IMG/VR virus record: IMGVR_UViG_3300021197_000351
Location: 1-55,256 of that record
Source of the DNA: a virus
Taxonomy: Duplodnaviria > Caudoviricetes
Strand: one strand, 5' to 3'
DNA length: 55,256 nt
The notes below the pieces were generated by a model. The model was not told the DNA's origin. It worked only from the letters and a program-made list of their open reading frames with translations, and made no database searches. Shown here one piece after another: positions 3,890 to 55,256 of the stretch. Both the position numbers and the translations under genes were made by a program. How positions within the stretch are numbered: the first letter of the stretch is position 1; each line of letters opens with the position of its first letter.

Positions 3890-4344
3890 TGCCAGATCAA
3901 AACAGACTGGACAGTCTCTTCATTGATATTGCGCATCGTGTCTCTCACATGAGTCACGATGTCGATACTAAAGTAGGTGCGGTGATTGTCAAAGACGGTA
4001 ACATACTTAGCATGGGTTACAATGGTATGCCTTCAGGTATGGACAACGATTGTAAGACAACCAATGGTGGTACTAAGGCTGAGGTAATTCATGCCGAAGC
4101 TAACGCCATATGCAAACTAGCCAAGAGCACGGGGTGTTCAGAGGGTGCAACACTTTATTGTACCCTTGCCCCTTGTGTTGAATGTGCAAAGCTAATACTG
4201 CAAAGTGGTATTAGTCGGGTAGTATTTTCTGATGCATATAAAGATGAAGCAGGAACACTACTACTAATTCAGAAAATTAAAGTAGATAGGACAACGTATG
4301 CAAGCACAACTCCAATACCTAACGGAGAAGATAAGAAAAGCTAA
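3889..4344 (+). CDS. dCMP deaminase
   Basis: KVGAVIV, GYNG, HAEANAI, PCVEC zinc-deaminase motifs. Confidence 0.93.
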   Translation: MPDQNRLDSLFIDIAHRVSHMSHDVDTKVGAVIVKDGNILSMGYNGMPSGMDNDCKTTNGGTKAEVIHAEANAICKLAKSTGCSEGATLYCTLAPCVECAKLILQSGISRVVFSDAYKDEAGTLLLIQKIKVDRTTYASTTPIPNGEDKKS

Positions 4345-25311: not shown

Positions 25312-27060
25312 TTAAGAACACTCTTTCTGGCCAGTAAGCGGGTCGATAAAGCAAGCTTCAACCGTTCCCTCTTCTTCCGCCACTTCCGGAGCTTTGCTAG
25401 ATACCGCCTCTTTTTCTTCCACGGTTTCTTCAATTGTGTTAAGGATTCCGAATCGCTTACCAGATAAACGGAACGTTGTGCATCCCTTCGCCCCGCCCTT
25501 CCAGGCATCAACGTAAACTTTCTTGAAGTCTTCATATGAGACATCGTCTCCCACATTACAAGTCTTTGAACAAGCAGAATCTACATAATGCTGAGCAAGA
25601 AGCAATACAGCTAGATGATCCTGCACGGAAATCTCGTTTGCTGTTTTACCTTCTACACCATGGGCATATGCATAATCCTCCACACGCTCTACTTTCGGTC
25701 CTTCAAAAGTTTGGATTGTCCGATCATAATAGTGGCTAAACACGGGTTCAATGCCGCCTGAGACATTATCTGCCACGAGACTGATTGTTCCTGTGGGGGC
25801 AATGCTTGTAAGATGCGAGTTACGAATACCATGTTCTCGGATCTCCTTTTTAACAGATGCCGGCAAGCCACGAATAAAGTTTGATTTAAGATAGTCTTCA
25901 CGATACATCGGAAATGCACCCTTTTCAGCTGCTAGTCGCGCAGATGCTCTATAGCAATTGTCACGCAAGCAAGCGAATACCTTTTCTGCCCACACAAGAA
26001 ATTCTTGTGAGGCATAAGGCATGCCGAGCATTTCTCCGGCATTAGCCAAACCAGTGACGCCAAGTCCCATTCGGCGCTTGTTCTTTGCTTCATCGGACTG
26101 CTGTTTAAGTGGATAGATTGTTCGATCAATAATATTATCCTGCGCCCTTACTACATCTGGAATATCTTTCTTAAACTGTGTAAAGTCAAATTCGTTATCA
26201 ACAATATACTTAGTTAGATTAAATGAACCCAACAGGCATGCACCATATGCGGGAAGCGGTTGCTCACCACACGGATTAGTGGCCCGAATTTCTTCACAAT
26301 AAAATAGATTATTTAATTCAGTGATACGATCAATAAATAATACGCCAGGCTCAGCCCAATCCCAAGTGCTAAGCATGATTTTATCCCAAAGCTCTTTGGC
26401 GGATACCGTTTTGTGGTGGATTCCATCGTAGCACAATGCAAAAGAATCGTCGCTATCATTAGCTAGTGCCTCCATAAATTCATCAGTAATACCTACACTA
26501 ATATTAAAACCAGTAAGCTTATCAGAATTACGTTTAGCAATAACGAACTCCTCAATGTCTGGATGGTCCACGCGTAGTACTCCCATCTGAGCGCCGCGGC
26601 GATGGCCAGATGATGCAATGGTTTGACAAACAGAATCGAAGATACCCATAAAAGAAACCGGTCCAGACGCTTGCGAGTCCAAAGATTTAATCCTGTCTCC
26701 ACGGGGACGGATCTTGGAAAAGTCATAGCCAATCCCACCGCCTCTACGCATCGTCTCAGCAGCTTCACTGGCCTTCTCCATAATACTATTCATGCTATCT
26801 TCAATATCACCACTAACAAAACAATTGTATGCAGTAGTAATACGGTTAGATCCAATGGCAGACTGTACTCTACCAGCTGGTAGGAATCTCATGTTCCCAA
26901 GAATATCTTCTAGACTATACCGATGTTCTTGACCATCACATAGTGCACGAGCAATTCTTTTAATCTTATCAGTAAAGGTTTCCCCTTCCTGTCTATACTT
27001 CATCTGATCAATTTCTTCAGATAGCGTCATAGATGGTCCAGAATATTCGATATTGTGCAT
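25312..27060 (-). CDS. nrdJ: Class II (adenosylcobalamin-dependent) ribonucleotide reductase
   Basis: FLPAGR, NCFV, GGGIGYDFS, RRGAQM, TNPCGEQPL, RRMGLGVTG, IAPTGTIS, SKTCN; no small-subunit gene seen. Confidence 0.9.
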   Translation of the reverse strand: MHNIEYSGPSMTLSEEIDQMKYRQEGETFTDKIKRIARALCDGQEHRYSLEDILGNMRFLPAGRVQSAIGSNRITTAYNCFVSGDIEDSMNSIMEKASEAAETMRRGGGIGYDFSKIRPRGDRIKSLDSQASGPVSFMGIFDSVCQTIASSGHRRGAQMGVLRVDHPDIEEFVIAKRNSDKLTGFNISVGITDEFMEALANDSDDSFALCYDGIHHKTVSAKELWDKIMLSTWDWAEPGVLFIDRITELNNLFYCEEIRATNPCGEQPLPAYGACLLGSFNLTKYIVDNEFDFTQFKKDIPDVVRAQDNIIDRTIYPLKQQSDEAKNKRRMGLGVTGLANAGEMLGMPYASQEFLVWAEKVFACLRDNCYRASARLAAEKGAFPMYREDYLKSNFIRGLPASVKKEIREHGIRNSHLTSIAPTGTISLVADNVSGGIEPVFSHYYDRTIQTFEGPKVERVEDYAYAHGVEGKTANEISVQDHLAVLLLAQHYVDSACSKTCNVGDDVSYEDFKKVYVDAWKGGAKGCTTFRLSGKRFGILNTIEETVEEKEAVSSKAPEVAEEEGTVEACFIDPLTGQKECS

Positions 27061-29564: not shown

Positions 29565-30047
29565 CTATCCTATTAAGTAGCCGCAAAAGGCATTGTACTC
29601 ATTTCCGTGCATAGTGGCTGTGTAAGATGTCGCATTAAAAATATTAACAGTGTCATTAGCTGACAAAGTTCTTATTGCGTCACCGTGTGTTGGATGCCAG
29701 TCTGTACCGCCCCCATCTTCATAAACTAAGAACTCCGCGCTTGAATCATTAATATAAAGAATTATTCGCGTATTTTGTTCATTAGTCATTGACCTAAAGC
29801 TGAAGAAGTAAGTGCCAGAAACAGGAGCAGTAAATTTGTACGTTGAAAGATTAAAATAACTTCCTACGTTTACTCTAGCCGTGTTGAGTGGGAATATGGT
29901 GTTTGCTGCCATCTCAAAGCTACCACCATTGTAAAAAACATTAAACGCTGGTTTAGCTGGTTGAAGAATACGTCCACTGTTATCAATCGTCATAGCCGCA
30001 GTTCCACCACTGCTTTGGATGGAGTCTACTTTTAGTATACTTGTCAT
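29565..30047 (-). CDS. C1q/TNF-like tail domain protein (type A paralog)
   Basis: KPAFNV...FTAPVSGTYFF...FCGYLIG. Confidence 0.65.
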   Translation of the reverse strand: MTSILKVDSIQSSGGTAAMTIDNSGRILQPAKPAFNVFYNGGSFEMAANTIFPLNTARVNVGSYFNLSTYKFTAPVSGTYFFSFRSMTNEQNTRIILYINDSSAEFLVYEDGGGTDWHPTHGDAIRTLSANDTVNIFNATSYTATMHGNEYNAFCGYLIG

Positions 30048-30589: not shown

Positions 30590-31096
30590 CTATCCTATTA
30601 AGTATCCGCCAAAAGAACTTCGCATTTTAATTATGTGAGACGAATCCCCAACTACTATTCTTAGTTGTAAAACAGTTCCTGCGTTTACATTTAATGCAAA
30701 AGACTTTTGTATTGTTGAGTGATGTTCAGTAGCACTAGATATGTAATACGAAATATCGTGTATCGTCCCTGAGTTAGCACCGTCCACCCATAAAGCTCCA
30801 AGGTGATACGATGCGGCATCTCCCCCTTCAATTCTAACCCCGTAATTAAACTGGTAAAATCCAGTTAAAGGGCAAGTCCATTCGTTTGTTGATATGTTGT
30901 AGTTGTTACCAATATCAAATAGTTCATTATCAAATGGTACAGTGTTCCAACCTGTTGCGGTTTGCGAACTGTCACTACTGCGTTCAACAAGAAATCTTGG
31001 TCTAGTTGGCGTAAGAAGGCGTCCACTGCTATCAATAGTTAACGCATCTGTTCCACCAGTCTTACTAGCTATTTCATCTACAAATAATTTACTCAT
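30590..31096 (-). CDS. C1q/TNF-like tail domain protein (type A paralog)
   Basis: RPRFLV...VPFDNELFDIG...CPLTGFYQF...FGGYLIG. Confidence 0.65.
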   Translation of the reverse strand: MSKLFVDEIASKTGGTDALTIDSSGRLLTPTRPRFLVERSSDSSQTATGWNTVPFDNELFDIGNNYNISTNEWTCPLTGFYQFNYGVRIEGGDAASYHLGALWVDGANSGTIHDISYYISSATEHHSTIQKSFALNVNAGTVLQLRIVVGDSSHIIKMRSSFGGYLIG

Positions 31097-35659: not shown

Positions 35660-36997
35660 CTATAGTGCAATTGACATTGCAATTGAAAATCCTTTTGTAG
35701 CAAAACTACTAGTATCAGTTGCCTGAATAGGTAACCACGTACCTACTGGCGCTCCTGTACCTGATGGTGCTACTGAACAATATTTAACTGCGTTATCTGT
35801 TGTGTTATAATACAAGTCACCTACGGTTACTGTCTTACCAGCCGCTTCATGTGCATTCTCTGCAGCCGCATCTGTAGCATAGTTACCGTAATACTTTTCA
35901 TCAAAGTTAGCCACACTGCTAGCCGCTTGGTCTGCCCAATAAGCCGCTGAATATTTTGCTGTTCCACCTGATCCTGTAACAGGAGTAGACATAACAAAGT
36001 TACCGCCACCTAAAGCCCATTGTTTTGCCGAGCCATTAGTGTTACCTGCTTGAATACCTACTGCATATTCTTTAGATGAGTATTCAGTGTTATCAGCTGT
36101 GGTAGATGTTTCAGTTGCCCAGTCTTTAGCATTACCAGCACCTGAAGCGTGATCTACACCTGTGCCTCCAGTTGCCCATGCTTTAGATGAATAACCTTCA
36201 CCTGTAACTGCTTCACCGTTTGTTTTTTGCGCCCATGCTTCTGCTTCATCTTCAGAGCCTTGTGCATCTGTAGCTGAACTTGCAGCCGCTGTAGCCGAGT
36301 TACCTGCATTTGTAGCTTGTGTACTAGCTGTTGATGCGCTAGTTGCCGCATTGTTAGCTTGAGTAGTCGCTGTTGATGCACTTCCCGCACTAGCAGTTGC
36401 TGAGTTACCTGAAGCTGTAGCACTATTAGCACTATTAGTTGCTGAAGTTGCTGCATTAGTTTCAGAAGTAGCTGCAGCTGTGGCTGAGCTAGCCGAAGCT
36501 GTTGCACTACTAGCACTAGCAGTTGCACTATTAGCACTTGCTGTAGCTGAAGTTGTTGCACTGTTAGCAGAACCAGTTGCTGATGTAGCACTTGATGCCG
36601 CTGAAGTTGCAGAGTTAGCCGCTGCAGTTTGTGAAGCTGCGGCATTAGTGGCTGAAGTACTTGCTTCTGCCGCTTTAGTTGTTGCTGTTGCTGCGTCTGC
36701 TGCTGTAGTTGAAGCAGAGTTTGCCGCCGCCGAGGCAGAGCTTGCACTAGCGGTAGCTGAAGTTGCACTCGCTGTAGCACTAGTTGCTGCGTTAGTTGCT
36801 GATGTAGCCGCATTAGTTGCACTAGTAGCCGCCGCTGTTTCTGATGCTTTAGCATTAGTTGCCGCTGTTTCAGCCGCTAGAACGTCTGCTCCTACAATAT
36901 CAGGAATACCATCAATTAGTGTATCTGTAAATAAGCCACCATTAGCGGCATTATCTGTTGCACCCGTAAATTGTCCGGGCCTTGCTGGTGTTGTCAT
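35660..36997 (-). CDS. Tail fiber with Ala/Ser/Thr heptad-repeat coiled coil
   Basis: Long (A)ATSATNA-type repeats, then YSSK.WA repeats and GDLYYNTT. Confidence 0.75.
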   Translation of the reverse strand: MTTPARPGQFTGATDNAANGGLFTDTLIDGIPDIVGADVLAAETAATNAKASETAAATSATNAATSATNAATSATASATSATASASSASAAANSASTTAADAATATTKAAEASTSATNAAASQTAAANSATSAASSATSATGSANSATTSATASANSATASASSATASASSATAAATSETNAATSATNSANSATASGNSATASAGSASTATTQANNAATSASTASTQATNAGNSATAAASSATDAQGSEDEAEAWAQKTNGEAVTGEGYSSKAWATGGTGVDHASGAGNAKDWATETSTTADNTEYSSKEYAVGIQAGNTNGSAKQWALGGGNFVMSTPVTGSGGTAKYSAAYWADQAASSVANFDEKYYGNYATDAAAENAHEAAGKTVTVGDLYYNTTDNAVKYCSVAPSGTGAPVGTWLPIQATDTSSFATKGFSIAMSIAL

Positions 36998-37884
36998 TAT
37001 ATTAAGCCTCGCCCGTTAAAGTTAATTTGTAGGTTTCCACCTGAAGCGTTTCGTTTAGCGTCTTCATCGTTAAGTTCTGCAATTTCGCTTTTAAACATTG
37101 CTAAATACTTTGCAGCTTGGTCATCATCTTGCACATATGCAAACACTTCTGATAGTGCCCCAAACAAAAGAACACGCTGGTTTTCATCACGCAGCCAGTT
37201 AGGTGTTGCAATACCAATATAATAAGTAGCAGTTACAGTACCACCCGTGCTAGCCGCTTGCGCTGCGCTTTGAGTAGCATAGGCAGTTGTTCCCGTGTTG
37301 CTATTAAAATATAATTGTTTAGAATTAGCTACACCAGATCCTGCACCGGTTGTTGTAAGAAAACCGGCATTATAGTTAAGCACTGTTACGGAATAAACAG
37401 CGTTAAGTGCCGGGAGTCTACGGTAATAATAAAGTTCTATACTATTAGCATCTGATCCTTGATTTGAAAAACCAAAGCCAGGTGTAAGGTATACTACATT
37501 TCTTTCCCGCGTCCAATAGTTATTTGTTGAGTATTTTTCAGCAGATGGATCATTAAATGTACGTACATCTAGCTTTTCATTAAATACTCTAATAGCTGCA
37601 CCGGAAGTGTCTACTTCTTTAATTTGAATAAATTCAACCAAATCGTAAGGTAGTTGTATTTCTGTTTTACTTGGGTTAACACCCGATGTTGCTGTGGTTG
37701 CAGACTCAAGTAATGTTTTTTCGTATACTGCTACGTTTTCTAGCGGAGGTACGCGTAGTGAGCGATATGCTTTATCTGCAGCATACTTAAGTCCATCCTT
37801 AATAATCGCATCACTAACAACCTCTTCATCCCTGTTAGACCAGGTACGAACAAGCGCCACTAATTCATCATAGGTTATTGCCAT
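36997..37884 (-). CDS. Head-tail adaptor / tail tubular protein
   Basis: TYDELVALVRTWSNR...LRVP...LPYDLVE...NWL...LLFGAL; follows the capsid genes. Confidence 0.7.
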   Translation of the reverse strand: MAITYDELVALVRTWSNRDEEVVSDAIIKDGLKYAADKAYRSLRVPPLENVAVYEKTLLESATTATSGVNPSKTEIQLPYDLVEFIQIKEVDTSGAAIRVFNEKLDVRTFNDPSAEKYSTNNYWTRERNVVYLTPGFGFSNQGSDANSIELYYYRRLPALNAVYSVTVLNYNAGFLTTTGAGSGVANSKQLYFNSNTGTTAYATQSAAQAASTGGTVTATYYIGIATPNWLRDENQRVLLFGALSEVFAYVQDDDQAAKYLAMFKSEIAELNDEDAKRNASGGNLQINFNGRGLI

Positions 37885-37898
37885 ATCAGGTCTCCTAA

Positions 37899-38240
37899 TT
37901 AAGTATTTACCAAGAGATCTCTGTATTCAGTTTGCAAAATAGTTCTCAACCGTTTCATATTATTTGGATCATTCATAAACCCAGGGTCGTGTAAATCTAA
38001 ATGATGTTCTTGCAAAATCTTAATTGCAACAATATCGGGAATAGTTGCCATCTTACGATAGCCACCCTTTTTGTGACCGAAATATGCCTGCCGGTCGCGA
38101 TCCATTTTAGCTTGTTCTTTATATTGAGTAATATCTTGTGTTGCTTGCCAATCACCTGAACTCAGGTCAAAGCCAGCATGAATACCTTCGTCTGCTTTTA
38201 CTGTAGCACTACGAAATTTAAAATCTGTCTCTTTGCTCAT
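37899..38240 (-). CDS. Hypothetical protein
   Basis: 113-aa ORF, RKMATIPDIV motif. Confidence 0.65.
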   Translation of the reverse strand: MSKETDFKFRSATVKADEGIHAGFDLSSGDWQATQDITQYKEQAKMDRDRQAYFGHKKGGYRKMATIPDIVAIKILQEHHLDLHDPGFMNDPNNMKRLRTILQTEYRDLLVNT

Positions 38241-38255
38241 GTCCTCAAAACTCCT

Positions 38256-38465
38256 TTATGGCGATTGTGTATACGGTGCAAAGCGTCCTGCTTTGATATA
38301 GCCTAAGCGTGCGCCAGTAGTCCCGACAACAGCTGGTGCCGAACCGACAGCGACTGAACCCGCATTAGGTGTAAAATGAGTAATTTTATTAGTGGCTTCA
38401 TCTACGCGCCACACACATCTATCAGCTGGGTAAGTATTCCCATTAGCAAGTTGAATAACTAGCAT
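38256..38465 (-). CDS. Hypothetical protein
   Basis: 69-aa ORF with GGAG RBS. Confidence 0.6.
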   Translation of the reverse strand: MLVIQLANGNTYPADRCVWRVDEATNKITHFTPNAGSVAVGSAPAVVGTTGARLGYIKAGRFAPYTQSP

Positions 38466-38484
38466 TTACTTATCTCCTGTTTAT

Positions 38485-38673
38485 TTATTTTTTCATTGGG
38501 TTATTCATAGCCGGACCACATCCTGCTACTTTACCACCTTTGTTGTAATAGCCAGCTACGTTGCCGCCCATTGCTTTATATTCAATATCTTTTCCAGTTT
38601 TGTCAGCATACTTTTTGGCAGCTTCCATTCCGTACTTATTATATTTAAATTCTTTATCACCAACCTTTGGCAT
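38485..38673 (-). CDS. Small basic protein with GGxV motifs
   Basis: MPKVGDKEFKY...MGGNV..YNKGGKV; GGAGG RBS. Confidence 0.65.
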   Translation of the reverse strand: MPKVGDKEFKYNKYGMEAAKKYADKTGKDIEYKAMGGNVAGYYNKGGKVAGCGPAMNNPMKK

Positions 38674-38684
38674 AGTTACCTCCT

Positions 38685-38717
38685 AAAAAGAAAGGGGAAG
38701 CCATAAAGACCTCCCCT
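38685..38717 (-). terminator. Intrinsic terminator after the major capsid gene
   Basis: - strand AGGGGAGGTC-TTTAT-GGCTTCCCCT followed by TTCTTTTT. Confidence 0.8.
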
Positions 38718-38726
38718 AACAATAGT

Positions 38727-39896
38727 CTAGTTAAGACCGTAGATAGCACCACAACCCAATGGGTTACGTACTTCCAAAGTGCACTCTTCAACCATCATTC
38801 CTTTGGTTGAGTCACCCTGCTGGCCTACGTCTACTTCCTGCATAGGGCGCAGTGTAGCGACAGCAAACCACATTGGATCATAGATCAATGCAGCAAAGTC
38901 AGCAACATCAGGAATACCAGCACCAGAGAATGCAGTACCGTTATCGCCTTTAAGCGCAACAGAATTAGACAGACCCATTACGTAGTTAGGAACTACCATA
39001 AGATCGCCAAAGTCTGACATGTACACATCAACAGACTGACGGAGTTGACCGCCAGCATCAATGTTACGTACAACACCAGTATCTGAAACCATCAGGTCGG
39101 AAAAGTCACGACGCAGCTTTGGTGAAAGCATAACTTTCGTAGCCTTACCACCTTGCTCGTAGATCTTCTGCATAACAGCGTCGATGTCTGTTAGTGCAAG
39201 AGTACCACGTGCTGGCGCGGTAGTACCGCCGTTGATTGAACCGCGAACAGTTGCAGTACCGTCAGCATCAGTACCAGCATTAGAGGAAGAAGCTGAAGGA
39301 GCTTCAAACTCACCTACATAGTTACATGTAGTGGCTGAGTTGATAAATGACTGGTAACCACCAGCTGAACGGGCATTAGCGTTCTGTACACCAGTAGCGT
39401 TAGAAACATTATATGAATGAATCATATCGAATTCAACGTCACGGCGCAATTCAGTACCACGCTTCTTCAACTGATAAGCATACTCATCAGCTACGCCAGC
39501 TTGGTCTACTGCACGGCGTGTGCCAGATACAGCAATTGTCTTACCATTAATCTGAGTGTAGTTACCCAAACGTGTACGATACGGTCCAGATACTGCGAAC
39601 TTGTTACCAGTTGCAGGTGTTGCACCCGTACCACCAGAACCATCAGCAGTTGGTGCAATAAAGTCTGTGCCTTCACCAATACGTGAGTTGCCTGGAGCTT
39701 CCAGCTGGTCTGTCTGCCACTCATGGTAGATAGCTGTTGCTTTTGCTTTGCCGATAGACGACATAAAAGGAGTTTCATCACGAGTGATCATTGTGATGAA
39801 GTTTGCAAGATCCTCACGCTGTGAGACGTCTTTGCCAGTTCCGCGTGCTGGTCCCTGTGGACCTCCGGTGCCGCGGACACCAAGATTGTTAGCCAT
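38727..39896 (-). CDS. Major capsid protein
   Basis: REDLANFITMITRDETPFMSSIG...HEWQTDQL...NYTQI...ELRRDVE...YMSDFG...ECTLEVRN; follows the scaffold and precedes a terminator. Confidence 0.9.
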   Translation of the reverse strand: MANNLGVRGTGGPQGPARGTGKDVSQREDLANFITMITRDETPFMSSIGKAKATAIYHEWQTDQLEAPGNSRIGEGTDFIAPTADGSGGTGATPATGNKFAVSGPYRTRLGNYTQINGKTIAVSGTRRAVDQAGVADEYAYQLKKRGTELRRDVEFDMIHSYNVSNATGVQNANARSAGGYQSFINSATTCNYVGEFEAPSASSSNAGTDADGTATVRGSINGGTTAPARGTLALTDIDAVMQKIYEQGGKATKVMLSPKLRRDFSDLMVSDTGVVRNIDAGGQLRQSVDVYMSDFGDLMVVPNYVMGLSNSVALKGDNGTAFSGAGIPDVADFAALIYDPMWFAVATLRPMQEVDVGQQGDSTKGMMVEECTLEVRNPLGCGAIYGLN

Positions 39897-39916
39897 TGAT
39901 TATACCCTCCTAGGTA

Positions 39917-41026
39917 TTACATGTTTAAGGAGCGTTCGGCAAGAGTTCTAAGAAAGTCCTGTTGTTCTTCAGCAGATGCGTTGCCGCTTAGTGCGCGCTT
40001 ACGTTTTTGTTCTGCTGCGTCTTGCTTTTGCTTAGATATTGTTTTAGCTTTTCTAAGCGGAGCTTTCTTTGTTGGGGTTGATTTACGTTTAACCGCACCT
40101 TTAGACACACCTTGCTTAAGGCGTCTAAAGTCATCAACAAACTTAACGATAGCTGGGTCAGCAATTGAATCCAGAATTTCTGGAGCAATGCCCTCCTCAA
40201 TAGCAAATTCCCTAATGGCAATTGCTGTATCCTCATTAAAGTCTGGTATTAGCGTAGGAATAGTTTCATTAAAGTATTCTAGTTGCTCATTCCATTCTTT
40301 TTCATTACTAGTTGCTTCTTGTGCAGAAACAGCTTTTACAAGTTGTTCCCGTTGGTTGCGAGCTTCCCAGTAATTCTTTTGGACTTGTTCTCGTTTATCT
40401 TTTAGTTCATTGACTTCATATGTATCACCATCTTTTCGGGCTTTATCAATTGCGCCTTCAAGATCATGATACTCTGCAGCTAACGCTTGTTCGTTAGAGT
40501 ATAGTACAGCAGCTGATGCTTTGGACATTGTTTCCAACTCATTAACTTTTTCCTGATACTCGTCTTCCAACTCTTTTCTTGCGTCACCGAGTTCTCGACC
40601 CTTTTTAGAAAGATGTTGTTCAGTAGAGTAACCTTTAATAAGATCACCAAAAGAAACTTCAGCAAATTCGCCATCAACTTTGATAACCACCTTAGCTTCT
40701 AAATCAAGGTCTTCCGTAGCATATACATCAGATTCATCGGTAGCGGACTCTTCGTCGGCATCTTCTTCTTCTGTATTTTCTTCTTCTTCCTCAACCTCTT
40801 CTTCATCATCTTCGCTAACGGCTTCCTCAGATGTTTCTGGGTCTTCTTCATCTGATTCGTCCGGATCTAACTCAGGTACCTGCTCCTCGGGTAGAGATCC
40901 AACAAACTCGGAGTTTGCTATGATGTCAGCCAGCAGGGCATCTTCAGTTTGATCATTGTTAACCGCTGCAATAGAGTCATCCTGTGGTGGGGTAGAGTCC
41001 ATTTCCGCTTTGGTATTTTCTTCCAT
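39917..41026 (-). CDS. Capsid scaffolding protein
   Basis: Very acidic N-half, KVDGEFAEVSFGDLIKGY motif, coiled coil, basic C-terminus. Confidence 0.82.
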   Translation of the reverse strand: MEENTKAEMDSTPPQDDSIAAVNNDQTEDALLADIIANSEFVGSLPEEQVPELDPDESDEEDPETSEEAVSEDDEEEVEEEEENTEEEDADEESATDESDVYATEDLDLEAKVVIKVDGEFAEVSFGDLIKGYSTEQHLSKKGRELGDARKELEDEYQEKVNELETMSKASAAVLYSNEQALAAEYHDLEGAIDKARKDGDTYEVNELKDKREQVQKNYWEARNQREQLVKAVSAQEATSNEKEWNEQLEYFNETIPTLIPDFNEDTAIAIREFAIEEGIAPEILDSIADPAIVKFVDDFRRLKQGVSKGAVKRKSTPTKKAPLRKAKTISKQKQDAAEQKRKRALSGNASAEEQQDFLRTLAERSLNM

Positions 41027-41220
41027 TAGTTAGCCTCCTTCTTTATGGGGGCCTTCTCGGAATTCTTAGTCCTTGTGTATCGCTCAACAAGCGCATGAAG
41101 GTTTAGTAGCTTATCTGCATTCAGTTTAGCTTTACCTGCACTACGCATGGAGTCGTATTCCAAGGTGTTAATCATTTCATTATAATTTAAAAGTAGAGCG
41201 TCGATGTCAATCGGTCTCAT
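41026..41220 (-). CDS. Hypothetical protein
   Basis: GGAGG RBS before ATG 41220. Confidence 0.55.
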   Translation of the reverse strand: MRPIDIDALLLNYNEMINTLEYDSMRSAGKAKLNADKLLNLHALVERYTRTKNSEKAPIKKEAN

Positions 41221-41542
41221 CCGTATCCTCCTGTAGGTGTGGGATATTTTTCCCATACATCTCGAAGCTTATCATTTTCTCTTTGACACTACCAAGTGCC
41301 ATAGCAGAAGAGTAGAGGAACTCTCGAGATTTAGTTTCATGCGGCTCCGTCTTGAGCCACTCTAGAAAGAAGTCAACTAAGACTTCGCCATACACTTCAT
41401 CAAAAAATTCAGTCCGTTCTTTGGCGGCGAAGTGCCCTTGTACGTGAGCACGACGCGCCATTTCTTCCGGATGTATCTTGTGATTACCGTATGATTTATT
41501 ATTACTCAGCCTCTTCTCGGCTGTCTCACGGTATTTATCCAT
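41207..41542 (-). CDS. Hypothetical head-associated protein
   Basis: 111-aa ORF between portal and scaffold (EWLKT...REFLY). Confidence 0.65.
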   Translation of the reverse strand: MDKYRETAEKRLSNNKSYGNHKIHPEEMARRAHVQGHFAAKERTEFFDEVYGEVLVDFFLEWLKTEPHETKSREFLYSSAMALGSVKEKMISFEMYGKNIPHLQEDTDETD

Positions 41543-41547
41543 AGTCT

Positions 41548-41844
41548 TTAAGCAATCAAAGTATTATAAACAACTTCATTGACCTGCGCTGCAGTGCCGT
41601 GGGCTGTTGTTAGACTTACCAGTGTTTGTGCACCGTTGTTAAGACCTGTTACAATTTTATAAGACTTAGCTGCGCATTGAACGCCTGATTGAACTACGGT
41701 TCCAGCGGTAGCTACATTAAATGTAATTGCAGCATCGCTATCATTTGTTACGATAATTTTACCAGCGCCAGCGCCTGCTGCAGTTGTTACCGTTCCAGAT
41801 TGAGCACCGCCTGCTCCTGATTTATTGATTGTTACTGTTGCCAT
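41548..41844 (-). CDS. Small beta-rich structural protein
   Basis: Gly/Ala/Thr-rich 98 aa; GGAGG RBS. Confidence 0.6.
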   Translation of the reverse strand: MATVTINKSGAGGAQSGTVTTAAGAGAGKIIVTNDSDAAITFNVATAGTVVQSGVQCAAKSYKIVTGLNNGAQTLVSLTTAHGTAAQVNEVVYNTLIA

Positions 41845-43996
41845 TAGGGCCTCCTGAGTTTGTTAAAAGGCTTCTCGCCATTGCTATAATATCGGTATAT
41901 TCTGGATGTGCAGGTATTTCAGCACCCTCTTTAGTTGCTTTAATTGCAATATCTGCCCATTCTTGAAAGTGCTTGTCAATTGCAACAGCTAGTTGTTTTG
42001 CATTATCATCAAACGTATTCTTTGTTTGAGCAGATGTATATTTTACATTAGCTTCTGATAGCGCAATATCTGCCTCTGCTTTACGTTGCTCAGCCTGTTG
42101 CTTTGCTTGTGCTGCTTGAGATTGCTGTTGAATTGCTTGGCCAGCCTTTTCTTTAAACTGATCGGTAGTATAATCTTCGAGAAAATCATTACTATCCAGA
42201 TCCATAGCTTCAATAAGCTTAGTAGCTAACACTGCAGGGGCTGAAGGCTTTACCACCATACCAGCACCTTGCTGATTAAGTGCAGGTAAAATTTCAGCAC
42301 CTACTTTAGATAGCTTTGCAATTTTTGAGCTATTAGAGTTTTCCCCAATATCTAAGAAAACTTCTACTTCCATTTTTGAAGGTAGCGCATCAATATTAAC
42401 AGTTTCAATAAGGCCGTTCATATTATAAGGTATGTTACCCTTCATTGAAGTTTTAATTGTATGATACACACCTTCAATCAATCGTTTAAATCCGGTTTCA
42501 GAAAATCGTCTTGCAATATGCTGAATTCGTTTTTGTGCTGCTGATTGAACAGCGCTAAGCTTTTGTTCAGAGTTTCCTGATACATATAGTGTATCATTAA
42601 GTCCTTGAGCGGCCTTAGACATACCTGTAGCTTGTTCTTTAATAAGCTGCAAGTGCTCAAGCAAAGGTACTGTACCTGTAGAAATAGATTCAGGAGGCAG
42701 CTGTTGTACTGCACCTACTGGACTACCGTTAGTTGGAATAATCTGCTTTGGCTTCATGTTTTGAAGTGCAGAAAAATCTACCACGTTTGGATCAGCCAGC
42801 TTAGGCGAGTAGTTAGTCAAATATGTATTCTCTACAAAACCTCTAAGAATAGCAGTTGATGCTAGCGTAGAGCTACGTGTAAAGTCTGCCATTGATAAAC
42901 CAAAGAATTCATGTGGTATATCAATTGGTACAATGTCAGCTAGTGGTACCATATCACAATCTTCTTCATAAAGGATATGTGTACCCGCAGTAATAATATG
43001 CTTTAGCTCAGCAATACCATCACCATCTCGGTCTACTCTAATCCAACACTCAGTAACTGTAACTTCACGGTTTGCTTCTAATGGTGTTTCACTTACAGAG
43101 TTTGAGCCTTGATAATATTCTTGTCCTGTAATTTCTTTACGGGCTGCTACATCTTGCGCATAATCCAAGGACCCTGTCCATGCGGCTGCATCAGATAGTG
43201 CATCCCAATCCTCAACAGCATCTGCCATATCAGGATAGTACTTACGAATTTCAGAACGAGTCATACTATTTTGGATACCAACAAATGAAGCGTCTTCAAT
43301 TGTAGTAGCATCTCTTGAAATACGAAAGTTTTCTGGTGGAACTAACTCAAGTTTAATTTTAGATTGATTAATTTCTTGACGAACCCGTACATTAACATAT
43401 ACTAGTTCAACCTCTGGTCCTAGATTATCTGATGGTGACATTGCACGGTTTTCAAATTCTAGATCACCAACAATTTCTAAACTATCATCAGAAAGTATTT
43501 CATCAAGTTTAGTCTGACTAATCTCTTCATATTCTTGAAATACATAATCATAGTCTTCAATATAGCCCCAGCGAATTACTGCATTCTTCCATAAAAGTGC
43601 AGACTTCATCCATTGCTCAAGTATTTCCCAACCATTGTTTTGTTTAAATAAGGTATAATTAATAAGCATCGCGGCATCTTTAGCGCCTTGAAAAGCGCCA
43701 GGCGTATCGTTCCATGGTAGGAAGCGGGCAATGCGCTGATTACTTAAAAACAAATCACACAAAACAGCTGTGTATGCTTCTATTACTTCTGTTGTAGAGG
43801 TATCAACAATAGTCGATACACCTTGTGGTGACAAGTGTGCAACAGGCAAACCTGCATATTCATAAGTAGCTTTAAGACGTTCGCGTGCTAAGTCTGACGA
43901 GTTAAGCCAATCACCTGTAGAGTTTTGTACTCCGCTTTCAACTAGACTAACTAATTGCTCATCTGTAACCGCTTCTTTATAACCGTAGGCTGACAT
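41822..43996 (-). CDS. Portal protein
   Basis: 724 aa; VPPENF, ECWIRVDRDGDGIAEL, PIDIPHEFFGLS, IARRFSETG; position after the terminase. Confidence 0.9.
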   Translation of the reverse strand: MSAYGYKEAVTDEQLVSLVESGVQNSTGDWLNSSDLARERLKATYEYAGLPVAHLSPQGVSTIVDTSTTEVIEAYTAVLCDLFLSNQRIARFLPWNDTPGAFQGAKDAAMLINYTLFKQNNGWEILEQWMKSALLWKNAVIRWGYIEDYDYVFQEYEEISQTKLDEILSDDSLEIVGDLEFENRAMSPSDNLGPEVELVYVNVRVRQEINQSKIKLELVPPENFRISRDATTIEDASFVGIQNSMTRSEIRKYYPDMADAVEDWDALSDAAAWTGSLDYAQDVAARKEITGQEYYQGSNSVSETPLEANREVTVTECWIRVDRDGDGIAELKHIITAGTHILYEEDCDMVPLADIVPIDIPHEFFGLSMADFTRSSTLASTAILRGFVENTYLTNYSPKLADPNVVDFSALQNMKPKQIIPTNGSPVGAVQQLPPESISTGTVPLLEHLQLIKEQATGMSKAAQGLNDTLYVSGNSEQKLSAVQSAAQKRIQHIARRFSETGFKRLIEGVYHTIKTSMKGNIPYNMNGLIETVNIDALPSKMEVEVFLDIGENSNSSKIAKLSKVGAEILPALNQQGAGMVVKPSAPAVLATKLIEAMDLDSNDFLEDYTTDQFKEKAGQAIQQQSQAAQAKQQAEQRKAEADIALSEANVKYTSAQTKNTFDDNAKQLAVAIDKHFQEWADIAIKATKEGAEIPAHPEYTDIIAMARSLLTNSGGPNGNSNNQ

Positions 43997-51630: not shown

Positions 51631-51792
51631 ATGCGAGTTACACCTATAAATCCATACGCAAGGCTACTTCGTGATCCTAAATATAAACACCAAGTAGTTA
51701 AAAACAAAAGAAAATATAATCGAAAGCGAGATAAAGATGACAGATTACGGCAGAATAATGAGAGAAATAGAGGCGGAACAAAAGACGGCTAA
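51631..51792 (+). CDS. Small basic protein (53 aa)
   Basis: MRVTPINPYARLLRDPKYKHQVVKNKRKYNRK..., GGAG RBS; read by eye. Confidence 0.5.
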   Translation: MRVTPINPYARLLRDPKYKHQVVKNKRKYNRKRDKDDRLRQNNERNRGGTKDG

Positions 51793-51807
51793 CGCCGCCT
51801 CTCCAAT
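51784..51807 (+). promoter_or_regulatory. Putative hairpin promoter 4 heading the nucleotide metabolism/replication operon
   Basis: GACGGC-TAAC-GCCGCC-TCTCCAAT; 20 of the first 22 nt match the copy at 48499. Confidence 0.65.
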
Positions 51808-51829
51808 CAATAAAAGAAAGGAAGCTGAC

Positions 51830-52111
51830 ATGGCGAAGGTCACTGCAGTACAAATTTTACATGAAGCCGCCGAGCTTAAAGAGCGTAAGTCTAAAGACTA
51901 TCAAGGCGGTACATGGACTGAAGAAGATTACTTCCCGTTCGGAGATACATCTTACATCCACATGATTCATACAAAGTATTTGCGTATGCGCAATATCTGT
52001 GAAGGTGATCAGGATACAAACTTCGAAGCACTTGAGGACACGCTAGTTGACATGGCAGTTTACTGCGCAATGTTTGCAGCATATTTGGAGAATAAAAAGA
52101 ATGGTATTTAA
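51830..52111 (+). CDS. All-alpha nucleotide-modification-associated domain protein (DUF1599/Nmad1-like)
   Basis: ERKSKDY...KYLRM...FEALEDTLVDMAVY; AAAGGA RBS supports start 51830. Confidence 0.6.
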   Translation: MAKVTAVQILHEAAELKERKSKDYQGGTWTEEDYFPFGDTSYIHMIHTKYLRMRNICEGDQDTNFEALEDTLVDMAVYCAMFAAYLENKKNGI

Positions 52112-52474: not shown

Positions 52475-53266
52475 ATGGCTTGGACACTTGAATCGCAATA
52501 CATTGATATTGCTAGAAAAATCATACATAATGGAACAGTAAGAGAAACTCGGAATGCTGTAACACACTCGTTACCATTTCAAACAATGGAATTTTCACTT
52601 GAAAGTGGCTTCTTTCCGCTGCTTACGACACGCCAAATGTTTTACAAAGGTGTGCTAGGTGAATACGCCGCAATGATTAGAGGCCCACGGCATGTTAAAG
52701 ACTTTGAAAGATGGGGTTGTAACTACTGGAATCAATGGGCTAACGAAGATGGTTCGATTGCTGTCGACTATGGTAATGCATGGCGTGACTTCAATGGTGT
52801 CGACCAAATGGCGCATGTTATTGACAGCCTGCTTAACAATCCAGCTGATCGTCGCATGGTTATTAGTGGATGGCGTCCTGATAAACTCGATGATCTTAAT
52901 CTACCCTGCTGTCACCACAACTACCAGTTTTATTCTGACGGTAGCACATTGGATCTACTATGGATCCAAAGATCCGGAGATTGGATGGTGGGAGTACCCA
53001 GTGATGTGGTGCTTTCTGCAACTATGCTTCTATGCTTTAGTAGTGTTGCTTCCCTTAGGCCAGGCACTGTTAAGTTTATAGTTGGCGATGCTCATATATA
53101 CGCAGACCATATTAACGATGCTCATAAGCAAATTAAACGTTTGCCATGGGCTCCACCTAAATACGACTTGAAAAAGCAATCAGATGTGTATTCATTTGAA
53201 CCATCAGATCTTACAATTTCAAGCTACAAATACGAAGACTCTATTAAATATTCAGTAAAGGAATAA
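52475..53266 (+). CDS. thyA: Thymidylate synthase family protein (ThyA fold) with Asp at the dUMP-specificity Asn
   Basis: FPLLTTR, YGNAWR, RRM, LPCCH, QRSGD, GDAHIYADH. Confidence 0.88.
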   Translation: MAWTLESQYIDIARKIIHNGTVRETRNAVTHSLPFQTMEFSLESGFFPLLTTRQMFYKGVLGEYAAMIRGPRHVKDFERWGCNYWNQWANEDGSIAVDYGNAWRDFNGVDQMAHVIDSLLNNPADRRMVISGWRPDKLDDLNLPCCHHNYQFYSDGSTLDLLWIQRSGDWMVGVPSDVVLSATMLLCFSSVASLRPGTVKFIVGDAHIYADHINDAHKQIKRLPWAPPKYDLKKQSDVYSFEPSDLTISSYKYEDSIKYSVKE

Positions 53267-53268
53267 AC

Positions 53269-53718
53269 ATGAGCTACCGAGTAAATACCGATGTGCCTTG
53301 GCACTATCACATTGAAGACATGCATAACCTATTTGGTGTGCATGATTGGGTTAACAGTAAACTAGACGAAGGAGATATGGAATCTCTAAAAAAGTTTTTA
53401 GAATTTCGTATTCAATTTCTGAAAGAAGAACTAAATGAAACAGAAGAAGCATTTAATAACTCAGATCCAGCTGAAATTGTTGATGGTCTTATTGACCTAT
53501 GTGTTATCGCCATTGGTACACTGGATGCATTCGGCTGCGACTCCGCTGGTGCTTGGGCTGAAGTCATGGAAGCAAACATGGCGAAAGAACCTGGTGTTAA
53601 GGCTTCGCGCCCCAACCCTCTCGGTCTTCCTGATCTTATTAAACCTAAGGGATGGAGCGGACCGGATCATACGCATACAACAGGCGTTCTTACAAGAGTA
53701 CTCGGAAAGGAAGAGTAA
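53269..53718 (+). CDS. MazG-like/PRA-PH all-alpha NTP pyrophosphohydrolase
   Basis: LKEELNE...EIVDGLIDL...EVMEANMAK...DLIKPKGW. Confidence 0.8.
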   Translation: MSYRVNTDVPWHYHIEDMHNLFGVHDWVNSKLDEGDMESLKKFLEFRIQFLKEELNETEEAFNNSDPAEIVDGLIDLCVIAIGTLDAFGCDSAGAWAEVMEANMAKEPGVKASRPNPLGLPDLIKPKGWSGPDHTHTTGVLTRVLGKEE

Positions 53719-54183
53719 ATGAAAATCATAGTCTCGCAGGAATTCGTAGATCAATGTATTGCCCGCTCAAATATATACAACGCAGGTCAACGCTCTGAGC
53801 AACAGCTTATTAGAGATATTGAATGCGAAATTTTTGAGTACCATATGATTAGCACAGACCAGTGGGATGACCACGATTCTTGGAAAGTTGATGGTGTTTC
53901 AGATGTATATGGTAATGTTGACGTAAAGTTTATTGATAAGTTCTATAATATTGCTCATAAGAAAATGGCATACCTCGCATGGCAATCAACAGATGTTGAA
54001 ACATTTGTATTCTGTGAATGGGTTAGTAGGCCAGAGCGTCTCCTTAAAGCAGGTGATGAAGTCGAAGTCAATGTCGTAGGTATTTTATCTTATATGGATT
54101 TTCTTAAAAACCTGCGCCCATCTAAATTTAATGCAGGATATTATGTAAATGCCAGACAAGTTGCCCAAACATATGAGGAGTGA
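53719..54183 (+). CDS. Putative PD-(D/E)xK nuclease
   Basis: CEIFEY...KVDG......NVDVKF spacing resembles restriction-endonuclease-like active sites. Confidence 0.4.
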   Translation: MKIIVSQEFVDQCIARSNIYNAGQRSEQQLIRDIECEIFEYHMISTDQWDDHDSWKVDGVSDVYGNVDVKFIDKFYNIAHKKMAYLAWQSTDVETFVFCEWVSRPERLLKAGDEVEVNVVGILSYMDFLKNLRPSKFNAGYYVNARQVAQTYEE

Positions 54184-54340
54184 TGTTGATCATATTACTG
54201 AGCTACCTTTCGAAATAATTAAGTGCCCATCGTGTGCTATCTTATACCAAAGAATGTGGATAGATAGACTCGATGATCACTGCCCTAAATGTCTCAACAA
54301 GCATATGCTAGAAAGAGAAACCAATGAGACTAACATTTGA
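54149..54340 (+). CDS. Small zinc-ribbon protein (start uncertain)
   Basis: CPSC...CPKC. Confidence 0.5.
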   Translation: MPDKLPKHMRSDVDHITELPFEIIKCPSCAILYQRMWIDRLDDHCPKCLNKHMLERETNETNI

Positions 54341-55256
54341 TATTGAAACTGATGGGTTAGACGCTACCAAAATATGGTGTCTAATCATGGAAGATATTGA
54401 TACAGGACGTATCATGAAGTATACTGATCAACCTATAAAGTGCAATGGTGATATTGCAACTGGCTTAAACATGCTTAAAAATGCTGAGCTACTTGTTGCA
54501 CATAATGGCATTGGCTTTGATGCGCTTGTCATACTAAAGCTATATGGTGTTGATCTATACAATAATAAGTTCTTTGATACATGGATTGCATCACAAGTTC
54601 TTAATTACCGCAGACCACACAAGCATGGCTTAGCTGGCTGGGGTGAACACCTAGGCTATCACAAGCTACACTTTGATAACTTCTCAGAGTTCTCTGAAGA
54701 AATGGTTACGTATTGTGTACGTGATGTACAACTGAATACTGTAATCTTTAAGAAGCTAATGGAAGAACTCACTGCGCTTGCTGCTAAGCAACCCCTTATT
54801 CGTGAGGGTTTGAAAGCAGAAATGGAGGCTGCAAAGTTTGATGCTTACTGTAGACATTACGGATGGCAGTTCGATACTGATAAAGGTAAAGACACACTCG
54901 ACAAACTTATCAATCGTATGAAATACATTGAAGGTGTAGTCGAACCACACTTACCAGACATCGTTAAGTACAAAGATAAAGTTGCTAAGACTCCAAAGTT
55001 TACAAAGAAAGGTGAGTACACTGCAACAACTGCACGTATGCTTACTGAATACTTTAAGCGTGAAGTTAAATCAACTGATACACATATGCTTGCAGCTGGT
55101 CGAGAGTTTCAACGTAAAGAAACAATCAAAGCCACACTCGGTAATATGGAACAAGTCAAAGAGTATCTTTACTCAATTGGCTGGGAACCAGATGACTGGA
55201 AGATGGAGCGCGGTGTATATGGCTGGGAAAAGAAATCACCTAAGCTAACATCAACC
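54324..55256 (+). CDS. Family A DNA polymerase, N-terminal part (3'-5' exonuclease domain); continues across the window junction
   Basis: ATG at 54324 gives MRLTFDIETDGL (ExoI) and AHNGIGFD (ExoII). The 933 nt to the window end are exactly 311 codons, ending ...KKSPKLTST and joining frame 1 at base 1 (SLEKVGE...). Confidence 0.92.
   Translation, partial: MRLTFDIETDGLDATKIWCLIMEDIDTGRIMKYTDQPIKCNGDIATGLNMLKNAELLVAHNGIGFDALVILKLYGVDLYNNKFFDTWIASQVLNYRRPHKHGLAGWGEHLGYHKLHFDNFSEFSEEMVTYCVRDVQLNTVIFKKLMEELTALAAKQPLIREGLKAEMEAAKFDAYCRHYGWQFDTDKGKDTLDKLINRMKYIEGVVEPHLPDIVKYKDKVAKTPKFTKKGEYTATTARMLTEYFKREVKSTDTHMLAAGREFQRKETIKATLGNMEQVKEYLYSIGWEPDDWKMERGVYGWEKKSPKLTST

Follow-up and report, generated by a model that had tools for sequence, protein, structure and literature searches.

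When a phage thymidylate synthase (TS) homolog carries Asp in place of the Asn that selects dUMP, which nucleotide does it act upon, what does it make, and what is the product used for? These questions are raised by an open reading frame (ORF) in virus record IMGVR_UViG_3300021197_000351, the whole of which (55,256 bases; completeness estimate 97%) constitutes the window analyzed here. A preliminary description of the window had proposed that a ThyA homolog with this substitution makes 5-methyl- or 5-hydroxymethyl-dCMP, either for modified DNA or for an alternative route to dTMP via an encoded dCMP deaminase.

A full-length thymidylate synthase homolog in a near-complete phage genome

The gene, its diagnostic codon, and the DNA polymerase gene that spans the record ends are as follows.

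52475-53266, + strand: ThyA-family enzyme with Asp177, predicted dCMP C5-methyltransferase (5-methyl-dCMP synthase); PF00303, E 1.3e-66
53003-53005, + strand: GAT codon for Asp177, at the Asn177 site of E. coli ThyA; alignment A1
54324-55256, + strand: DNA polymerase family A, N-terminal part (3'-5' exonuclease domain); PF01612, phrog_17
1-894, + strand: the same DNA polymerase, C-terminal part; phrog_17, E 8.1e-54

The TS homolog, designated P0001, is 263 amino acids long and begins with ATG, 7 nt upstream of which lies a Shine-Dalgarno-like run, AAAGGAA. The Pfam family PF00303 (Thymidylat_synt) spans the whole ORF with 224.9 bits against a cut-off of 24.3, and the solved structures closest to it are those of thymidylate synthases from bacteria (3ix6, E 1.6e-42). 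An AlphaFold2 model of P0001, built with 70 homologs, had a mean pLDDT of 96.9, and when compared by Foldseek with the TS of E. coli, human and M. tuberculosis, it aligned over its full length (about 264 columns) with TM scores of 0.93-0.95. The family match and the full-length TS fold bear out the earlier assignment of this ORF as a ThyA homolog. The sequence is 30% identical to E. coli ThyA, 26% to the Xp12 enzyme (over 208 residues) and 20% to T4 gp42, and seven of the eight NCBIfam thymidylate synthase equivalog models scored it under their cut-off, only TIGR03284 being exceeded (161 vs 108 bits). The TS catalytic set is complete, comprising Cys146, His147, Glu63 (E. coli Glu58), Trp85 and Trp88 (Trp80/83), and Tyr99 (Tyr94); Arg126/127, Arg166, Asp169, His207 and Tyr209 are also retained. 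Cys146 and the phosphate-binding Arg126/127 and Arg166 were invariant in the reference alignment (A1, described below) as well as across 121 homologs.

The record itself is a circularly permuted, near-complete genome, since the ends of the record cut through the polymerase A gene, whose halves join in frame (311 + 297 codons) and are contiguous in three relatives (loci L008, L010 and L011). Public sequencing data contained near-identical DNA in the contigs of 19 runs, which belong to 10 metagenome studies (marine, seawater, sponge and viral). One of these is possibly the source sample, and the phage appears to be common in the sea; the GenBank phage collection held no near-identical DNA.

Residue 177 and the choice of substrate

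Asn177 of canonical TS hydrogen-bonds O4/N3 of uracil. Asn at this position is reported to specify dUMP and Asp to specify dCMP (eLife 2021 PMC8670742; NAR 2026 PMC13326640), and both papers cite work in which a single change, Asn177Asp in E. coli ThyA or Asn229Asp in L. casei TS, converted the enzyme into a dCMP methylase. A1 is a MAFFT alignment of P0001 with three references, namely E. coli K-12 ThyA, the Xp12 TS homolog and T4 gp42. The peptide QRSGDWMVGVPSD, singled out in the preliminary description, was found at the place given, with GAT (Asp) at 53003-53005 as codon 177, and in A1 it matched QRSCDVFLGLPFN of E. coli ThyA column for column. Asp177 thereby shares a column with E. coli Asn177, the Xp12 Asp (GLPYD) and Asp179 of T4 gp42 (GFRND); phmmer alignments to solved TS structures gave the identical register. 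P0001 therefore lacks the Asn177 that defines a dUMP-specific TS (EC 2.1.1.45).

The presence of Asp in 118 of the 121 nearest sequences (P0001 and its 120 best homologs; Asn in two, a gap in one) argues that it is not a chance change. Moreover, Asp177 co-varies with two other substitutions, Ser176 (109/121; Ala176 is also seen) in place of the Phe/Tyr of canonical enzymes, and a second Cys immediately before the catalytic one (PCCH, 118/121). In a wider set of 157 rows, consisting of P0001, the best 150 cluster representatives and 6 references, Asp177 occurred in 74 and Asn177 in 83. Judged from sequence, the substrate of P0001 is very probably dCMP, and the earlier view of Asp177 as a dCMP-specificity residue gains support from this conservation, from the linkage to deaminase and MazG-like genes, and from the finding of no other TS in the genome, both of which are described below.

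An ordinary or dual-specificity TS would be the simplest competitor. In this scheme Asp177 is tolerated, the deaminase converts dCMP to dUMP, the MazG-like protein serves as a dUTPase, and the DNA is canonical. The active site is indeed otherwise that of a dUMP synthase, including His147, and a few clade members do carry Asn (2/121 among the nearest; P0131, P0137, P0142, P0153, P0160 and P0162 in the wider set), so that the Asp/Asn switch would seem evolutionarily labile. However, the prevalence of Asp177 and its co-variation with Ser/Ala176 do not sit well with mere tolerance, nor does the conversion of two canonical enzymes by the Asn-to-Asp change alone, and we consider an ordinary TS quite unlikely. 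The genomic context, presented below, adds to the case on both sides.

The nested or nearby Asn members have Ser-Asn or Val-Asn at 176-177, and may be reversions to dUMP specificity. One such locus (L063, 8001-8777) has a MazG-like gene, and no deaminase was detected within 8 kb of it.

Methyl or hydroxymethyl product

A hydrophobic residue at position 143, together with the C-terminal closing segment, provides for water exclusion and hydride transfer. In the NAR study (PMC13326640), a bulky hydrophobic residue at 143 is associated with a methyl product and Asp/Glu with a hydroxymethyl product, as in T4-like enzymes and MilA, while Asn at position 169 marks the flavin-dependent 5-hydroxy-dCMP synthases. 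Leu143 was found in all 121 homologs and Asp169 in 120, the remaining one having a gap, and the C-terminal segment of P0001 equals its E. coli ThyA counterpart in length and aligned with it to the end. P0001 thus combines Asp177, a hydrophobic residue 143 and a complete C-terminal closing segment, the three marks of a dCMP 5-methyltransferase, although the 143 rule is correlative, since A1 places Asn in this column for the Xp12 methylase, where the local alignment is ambiguous. It has neither the acidic 143, truncated C-terminus and open active site of the T4 gp42-type hydroxymethylases, nor the Asn169 of the 5-hydroxy-dCMP synthases of the RB69 gp48 type. Retention of Leu143 and Asp169, and a fold that extends intact through the C-terminus, disfavor 5-hydroxymethyl- and 5-hydroxy-dCMP; these features, along with Asp177 and the intact methyl-transfer apparatus, point to 5-methyl-dCMP as the predicted product. 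Of the two products originally offered, therefore, the methyl derivative is favored over the hydroxymethyl derivative.

A hydroxymethylase of the T4 gp42 kind would hydrate the methylene intermediate and lead to 5-hydroxymethylcytosine (5hmC) in DNA. Several facts are in keeping with it: T4 gp42 likewise has Asp at the 177 site, record MW202665 includes a relative with the automatic label 'pyrimidine hmase', such an enzyme would not need dihydrofolate reductase (DHFR), none of which was found in the phage, and some Asp177 TS homologs on metavirome contigs are described as feeding 5hmC-based modifications (PMC8670742). In addition to the universal Leu143, where hydroxymethylases have Asp/Glu, the C-terminal segment, missing in T4 gp42 but present in P0001 and modeled at high confidence, speaks against it, as does the Pfam scan, which found no glycosyl- or carbamoyltransferase to decorate 5hmC. 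Furthermore, deamination of 5-hydroxymethyl-dC would give 5-hydroxymethyl-dU and not dT, leaving unexplained the linkage of TS and deaminase in a genome with no other TS. We therefore consider this activity unlikely.

Counting against the methylase reading, His147, as in dUMP synthases, was found in all 121 homologs, Xp12 having Pro and T4 gp42 Thr at this position; position 147 was the second-ranked modification-associated residue in the eLife study (PMC8670742). The identity of only 26% to the proven methylase of Xp12, which lies in a different clade, is a further caveat. As a separate observation, a sub-lineage with Phe147 (PCF...PSD; loci L072, L074-L080, L082 and L085-L088) carries the MazG-like, DUF1599, TS and deaminase genes in tight order within about 2 kb.

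The neighboring genes, and genes absent from the genome

The following genes accompany the TS homolog on the same strand.

51737-52111, + strand: DUF1599 / 'nucleotide modification associated domain 1' protein; PF07659, E 1.3e-4 (below the Pfam cut-off)
53269-53718, + strand: MazG-like (PRA-PH) NTP pyrophosphohydrolase; PF01503, E 1.1e-8; phrog_671, E 1.9e-22
53719-54183, + strand: conserved 154-amino-acid protein in the interval from the MazG-like gene to the DNA polymerase; no Pfam or PHROG match
3889-4344, + strand: dCMP-type zinc deaminase; PF00383, E 1.5e-24; phrog_174 (dCMP deaminase), E 2.4e-49

Their order is DUF1599 protein, two small ORFs, TS homolog, MazG-like protein, 154-amino-acid protein and DNA polymerase A, followed by a 5'-3' exonuclease, a primase-helicase, the deaminase and a T7-like RNA polymerase. 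The TS, MazG-like and 154-amino-acid ORFs are separated by gaps of only 0-3 nt, the MazG-like gene beginning 3 nt past the TS stop. The window thus contains the module known from the MetaGPA screen, i.e., an Asp177 TS, a PRA-PH/MazG-like protein and a PF00383 deaminase near DNA polymerase A.

Among solved structures, the MazG-like protein is closest to the NTP-PPase DR2231 (E 2e-5), itself MazG-like and a dUTP-specific enzyme; this relationship speaks for the ordinary TS described above. We infer that the protein is a pyrophosphatase acting on dCTP (or dUTP), which would provide dCMP while clearing dCTP. The DUF1599 protein also matched phrog_1485 (E 7e-15) and phrog_18404 'hydrolase' (E 1.4e-14), and the DUF1599 and MazG-like genes are both conserved beside TS in related loci. 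It may be added that these two proteins match different halves of phrog_18404 (167-250 and 49-142, respectively), which suggests that they are fused in other phages and may work together. The 154-amino-acid protein occupies the same position in 9 related loci; having no P-loop, it is unlikely to be a missing dNMP kinase.

Searches for a second PF00303 match, ThyX, DHFR and thymidylate kinase found none in this 97% complete genome. None of 56 further ORFs scanned against Pfam matched a glycosyl-, carbamoyl- or DNA C5-methyltransferase, and a scan for Walker A motifs found no kinase-sized P-loop ORF, so that no phage dNMP kinase was recognized. The kinase and DHFR results are both counterpoints to the methylase model, a methylase being a source of dihydrofolate.

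Asp177 and the linked genes in related loci

A total of 97 IMG/VR loci, made up of the best 80 among 574 or more matches along with close relatives, were collected, and removal of two duplicate contigs left 95. Residue 177 could be called in 94 of these 95 loci, drawn from the best 80 of at least 574 matches and close relatives, and was Asp in 78 and Asn in 16. For the association test, each 80% TS cluster was represented by a single locus with flanks of 3 kb or more on either side of the gene. In this collection (close relatives and the best 80 of 574 or more matches), which is a non-random sample of phylogenetically related and hence non-independent loci, a deaminase was found within 3 kb in 24 of 35 Asp177 loci and 0 of 10 Asn177 loci (Fisher p ~1e-4), and a MazG-like gene in 27 of 35 and 1 of 10, respectively (Fisher p ~2e-4). 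Detection was also weaker in the Asn177 loci, since Asp177 phages supplied the tblastn queries, from which many of the Asn177 loci, being giant-virus records, are distant. Within this same sample of the best 80 of at least 574 matches and close relatives, the Asn177 loci without the deaminase and MazG linkage argue against an ordinary TS in P0001.

TS, MazG-like and deaminase genes also occur together in cultured phages, Edwardsiella phage KF-1 being an example, as well as in record MW202665, and the Pelagibacter phage Kolga has DUF1599, TS and MazG-like genes. A literature search retrieved no thymidylate synthase report on KF-1 or Kolga, the closest relatives with names, and none on DNA modification in cultured members of the clade.

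Phylogenetic placement was sought with a midpoint-rooted FastTree of P0001, the best 150 representatives and 6 references, minus three rows with fewer than 200 aligned residues. T4 and Xp12 were found on long branches outside, and P0001 was in a different clade from Xp12. An origin of Asp177 independent of Xp12 and T4 was considered on the basis of this tree and set aside, as the root and the number of origins are not settled by a midpoint-rooted FastTree.

Deaminase and a proposed route to thymidylate

The dCMP deaminase reported earlier at 3889-4344 was confirmed as a member of the dCMP/cytidine deaminase family by its PF00383 match. The protein, 151 amino acids long, is encoded in the replication block, about 5.9 kb downstream of TS across the circular junction; its solved relatives are those of cyanophage S-TIM5 (4p9c, E 2.6e-26), T4 cd (1vq2) and PBCV-1 (7fh4), and it is 35% identical to the Xp12 deaminase. 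We infer that it acts on 5-methyl-dC nucleotides, giving dT nucleotides.

Published work on such modules provides the frame for this assignment. In the MetaGPA study, the Asn177/Asp177 contrast served as a benchmark, the Asp177 TS homologs were enriched on cytosine-modified metavirome contigs, and TS co-occurred with PRA-PH and dCMP deaminase on such contigs (eLife 2021 PMC8670742). According to a later preprint (bioRxiv 10.1101/2024.12.05.627091), deaminase genes lay at most 3 kb from TS on 104 of 149 modified and 17 of 277 unmodified contigs, and of seven deaminase-linked Asp177 TS homologs expressed in E. coli, five made 5mdC and two made none. The enrichment and the five active enzymes are further points against an ordinary TS, and the two inactive ones count against the methylase reading. 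The same source reports that mSCD-B5, a 5mC-selective deaminase of 154 amino acids with the PBCV-1, S-TIM5 and T4 cd enzymes as structural neighbors, deaminated 5mdCTP but neither dCMP nor 5mdCMP; the 5mC preference of deaminases is described there as polyphyletic and without a diagnostic residue. Its authors proposed that phages replace C by 5mC and derive dTTP from deamination of 5mdCTP, which fits the labeling of Xp12, the model for fully 5mC-substituted DNA with dT made from 5mC nucleotides.

Two parts of the preliminary description can be revisited in this light. A route to dTMP via the deaminase agrees with the published hypothesis for these modules, but not in its phosphorylation level, since the characterized deaminase uses 5-methyl-dCTP and not the monophosphate; deamination at the triphosphate level may be a refinement of the earlier idea. 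Modified DNA and dT supply, on the other hand, had been presented as alternatives, which they are not, as both occur in the published model.

The remaining competitor concerns purpose rather than chemistry. A dCMP methylase could serve thymidylate supply only, the 5-methyl-dC nucleotides being fully deaminated and the packaged DNA having normal cytosine. The conservation of the deaminase together with TS would be expected here, no phage dNMP kinase was recognized that would commit 5mdCMP to the triphosphate pool, and the substrate of the MazG-like protein, whether dCTP or another, is a predicted one. Against these stand the published Asp177 TS contigs, whose recovery depended on the resistance of their DNA to treatments destructive to unmodified cytosine, and the full 5mC substitution of Xp12, the model of the pathway (bioRxiv 10.1101/2024.12.05.627091). 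Since the characterized deaminase needs a triphosphate, a 5mdCTP pool would also be available to the polymerase. A role in thymidylate supply alone is, therefore, very unlikely.

Proposed pathway

Considering all of the above, the DNA of this phage is probably synthesized with 5-methylcytosine, and its thymine probably arises through deamination of methylated cytosine nucleotides. In this pathway, P0001 would take dCMP and not dUMP, and would transfer and reduce the one-carbon unit of methylene-tetrahydrofolate, giving 5-methyl-dCMP. The MazG-like enzyme would convert dCTP to dCMP, feeding the methylase and depleting canonical dCTP, while kinases that are not phage-encoded, but of the host, would raise 5-methyl-dCMP to the triphosphate. 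The family A polymerase of the phage would then synthesize DNA with 5-methylcytosine instead of cytosine, and the dCMP-type deaminase would turn part of the 5-methyl-dC nucleotide pool into dT nucleotides. With a single folate-dependent enzyme supplying both 5mC and T, no dUMP-specific synthase would be needed.

The basis of this reading in sequence and model is the complete TS catalytic machine, the conserved Asp177, and the linkage to MazG-like and deaminase genes. On this basis, we regard it as likely that the TS-fold enzyme is a dCMP methylase making 5-methyl-dCMP within the full model of MazG-like enzyme, 5mC DNA and dT by deamination; complete substitution of C in the DNA is held with less confidence than the model as a whole. 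If the model is true, a phage of the sea swaps cytosine for 5-methylcytosine before replication and draws its thymine from methylated cytosine nucleotides, which would bear on restriction evasion, on the interpretation of virome methylation data, and on the search for 5mC-selective deaminases useful in methylome sequencing.

Comparison with known systems

The module, along with the idea of dT by deamination, is already published (PMC8670742; bioRxiv 10.1101/2024.12.05.627091), and this copy is without departure from it. Like the MetaGPA modules, it has a Thymidylat_synt domain with Asp177, PRA-PH, a deaminase of PF00383/PF14437, and DNA_pol_A with DNA_pol_A_exo1; one published screen was of a coastal seawater metavirome, and the near-identical DNA found here also came from marine, seawater and sponge runs. 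The deaminases are likewise comparable in length (151 amino acids here, 154 in mSCD-B5) and share the PBCV-1, S-TIM5 and T4 cd enzymes as solved relatives. The differences are that the deaminase gene is about 5.9 kb away here and not within 3 kb, and that His147 is kept, although position 147 was reported as differentially conserved. The genome is a complete one that carries the entire module, in a class for which most examples are metagenome fragments, and leaves knowledge of the mechanism unchanged.

The Xp12 deoxycytidylate 5-methyltransferase (QNN97214.1) shares with P0001 the TS fold, Asp at 177, a full C-terminus and a neighboring deaminase, but the two enzymes, only 26% identical and in different clades, differ in motif (PCP...PYD in Xp12, CCH...PSD here), and the Xp12 TS lies beside a DHFR and a HAD hydrolase, in contrast to the MazG-like enzyme here. 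T4 pairs gp42 with a dCTPase and a dCMP deaminase. The gp42 dCMP hydroxymethylase belongs to the TS family, uses dCMP and has Asp179 at the equivalent position; unlike P0001, it has Asp at the Leu143 site and Thr at 147, lacks Trp83 and about 40 C-terminal residues, and makes a hydroxymethyl product that is later glucosylated. The engineered mutants Asn177Asp of E. coli ThyA and Asn229Asp of L. casei TS (Hardy & Nalivaika 1992; Liu & Santi 1992; as cited in PMC8670742 and PMC13326640) resemble P0001 in their canonical scaffold with His147 and Leu143, but were made in the laboratory, whereas the Asp here occurs naturally, has become fixed across a large clade of phages, and goes together with Ser176 and Cys145. 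Finally, RB69 gp48 and DLP3 gp80, the 5-hydroxy-dCMP synthases (PMC13326640), are also TS homologs with Asp177 and dCMP as substrate; they have Asp169Asn and Leu143Glu, where P0001 has Asp169 and Leu143. Overall, P0001 is best filed as a putative phage dCMP 5-methyltransferase of the TS(Asp177)/MazG-like/deaminase module, in a lineage distinct from Xp12 and T4 gp42.

A bolder variant can be framed, in which the 'PCCH...PSD' enzymes form a marine lineage of dCMP methylases separate from those of Xp12 and T4, serving mainly for dUMP-free dT synthesis (from dCTP through dCMP and 5-methyl-dC nucleotide to dT nucleotide), with partial or absent methylation of the DNA, and flips between Asp and Asn at 177. 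Such a separate lineage is conceivable because the whole dUMP-synthase active site (His147, Leu143, Asp169) is kept except for residue 177, and the switch may flip within it, as Asn members are nested inside; we nonetheless find this variant doubtful.

Other features of the genome

Restriction-site avoidance was explored as a proxy for modification. The 4-mer palindromes were mildly under-represented (ratios of 0.72 for CATG, and 0.77 for both AATT and GATC) whether they contained C or not, and this proxy was dropped as evidence for modification, since it did not discriminate between C-containing and C-free sites. Of the 64 six-base palindromes, GATATC was the most strongly avoided, being absent where a Markov model predicts 11.5 occurrences (z -3.4).

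The portal, major capsid and adaptor proteins, encoded within 36997-43996 on the - strand, are of the SU10 type (PF23899, PF17236, PF24175), and occur in this genome in combination with two T7-like proteins, a single-subunit RNA polymerase (4298-6490) and a primase-helicase. A ribonucleotide reductase of 582 amino acids (25312-27060, - strand), with a match to the PF02867 barrel domain only (E 4.7e-111), is encoded between the large structural and the lysis genes, remote from the replication module. In the tail region, two small C1q-domain proteins (29565-30047 and 30590-31096, both - strand; E 1.6e-10 and 5.2e-9, respectively) are probably receptor-binding fiber tips.
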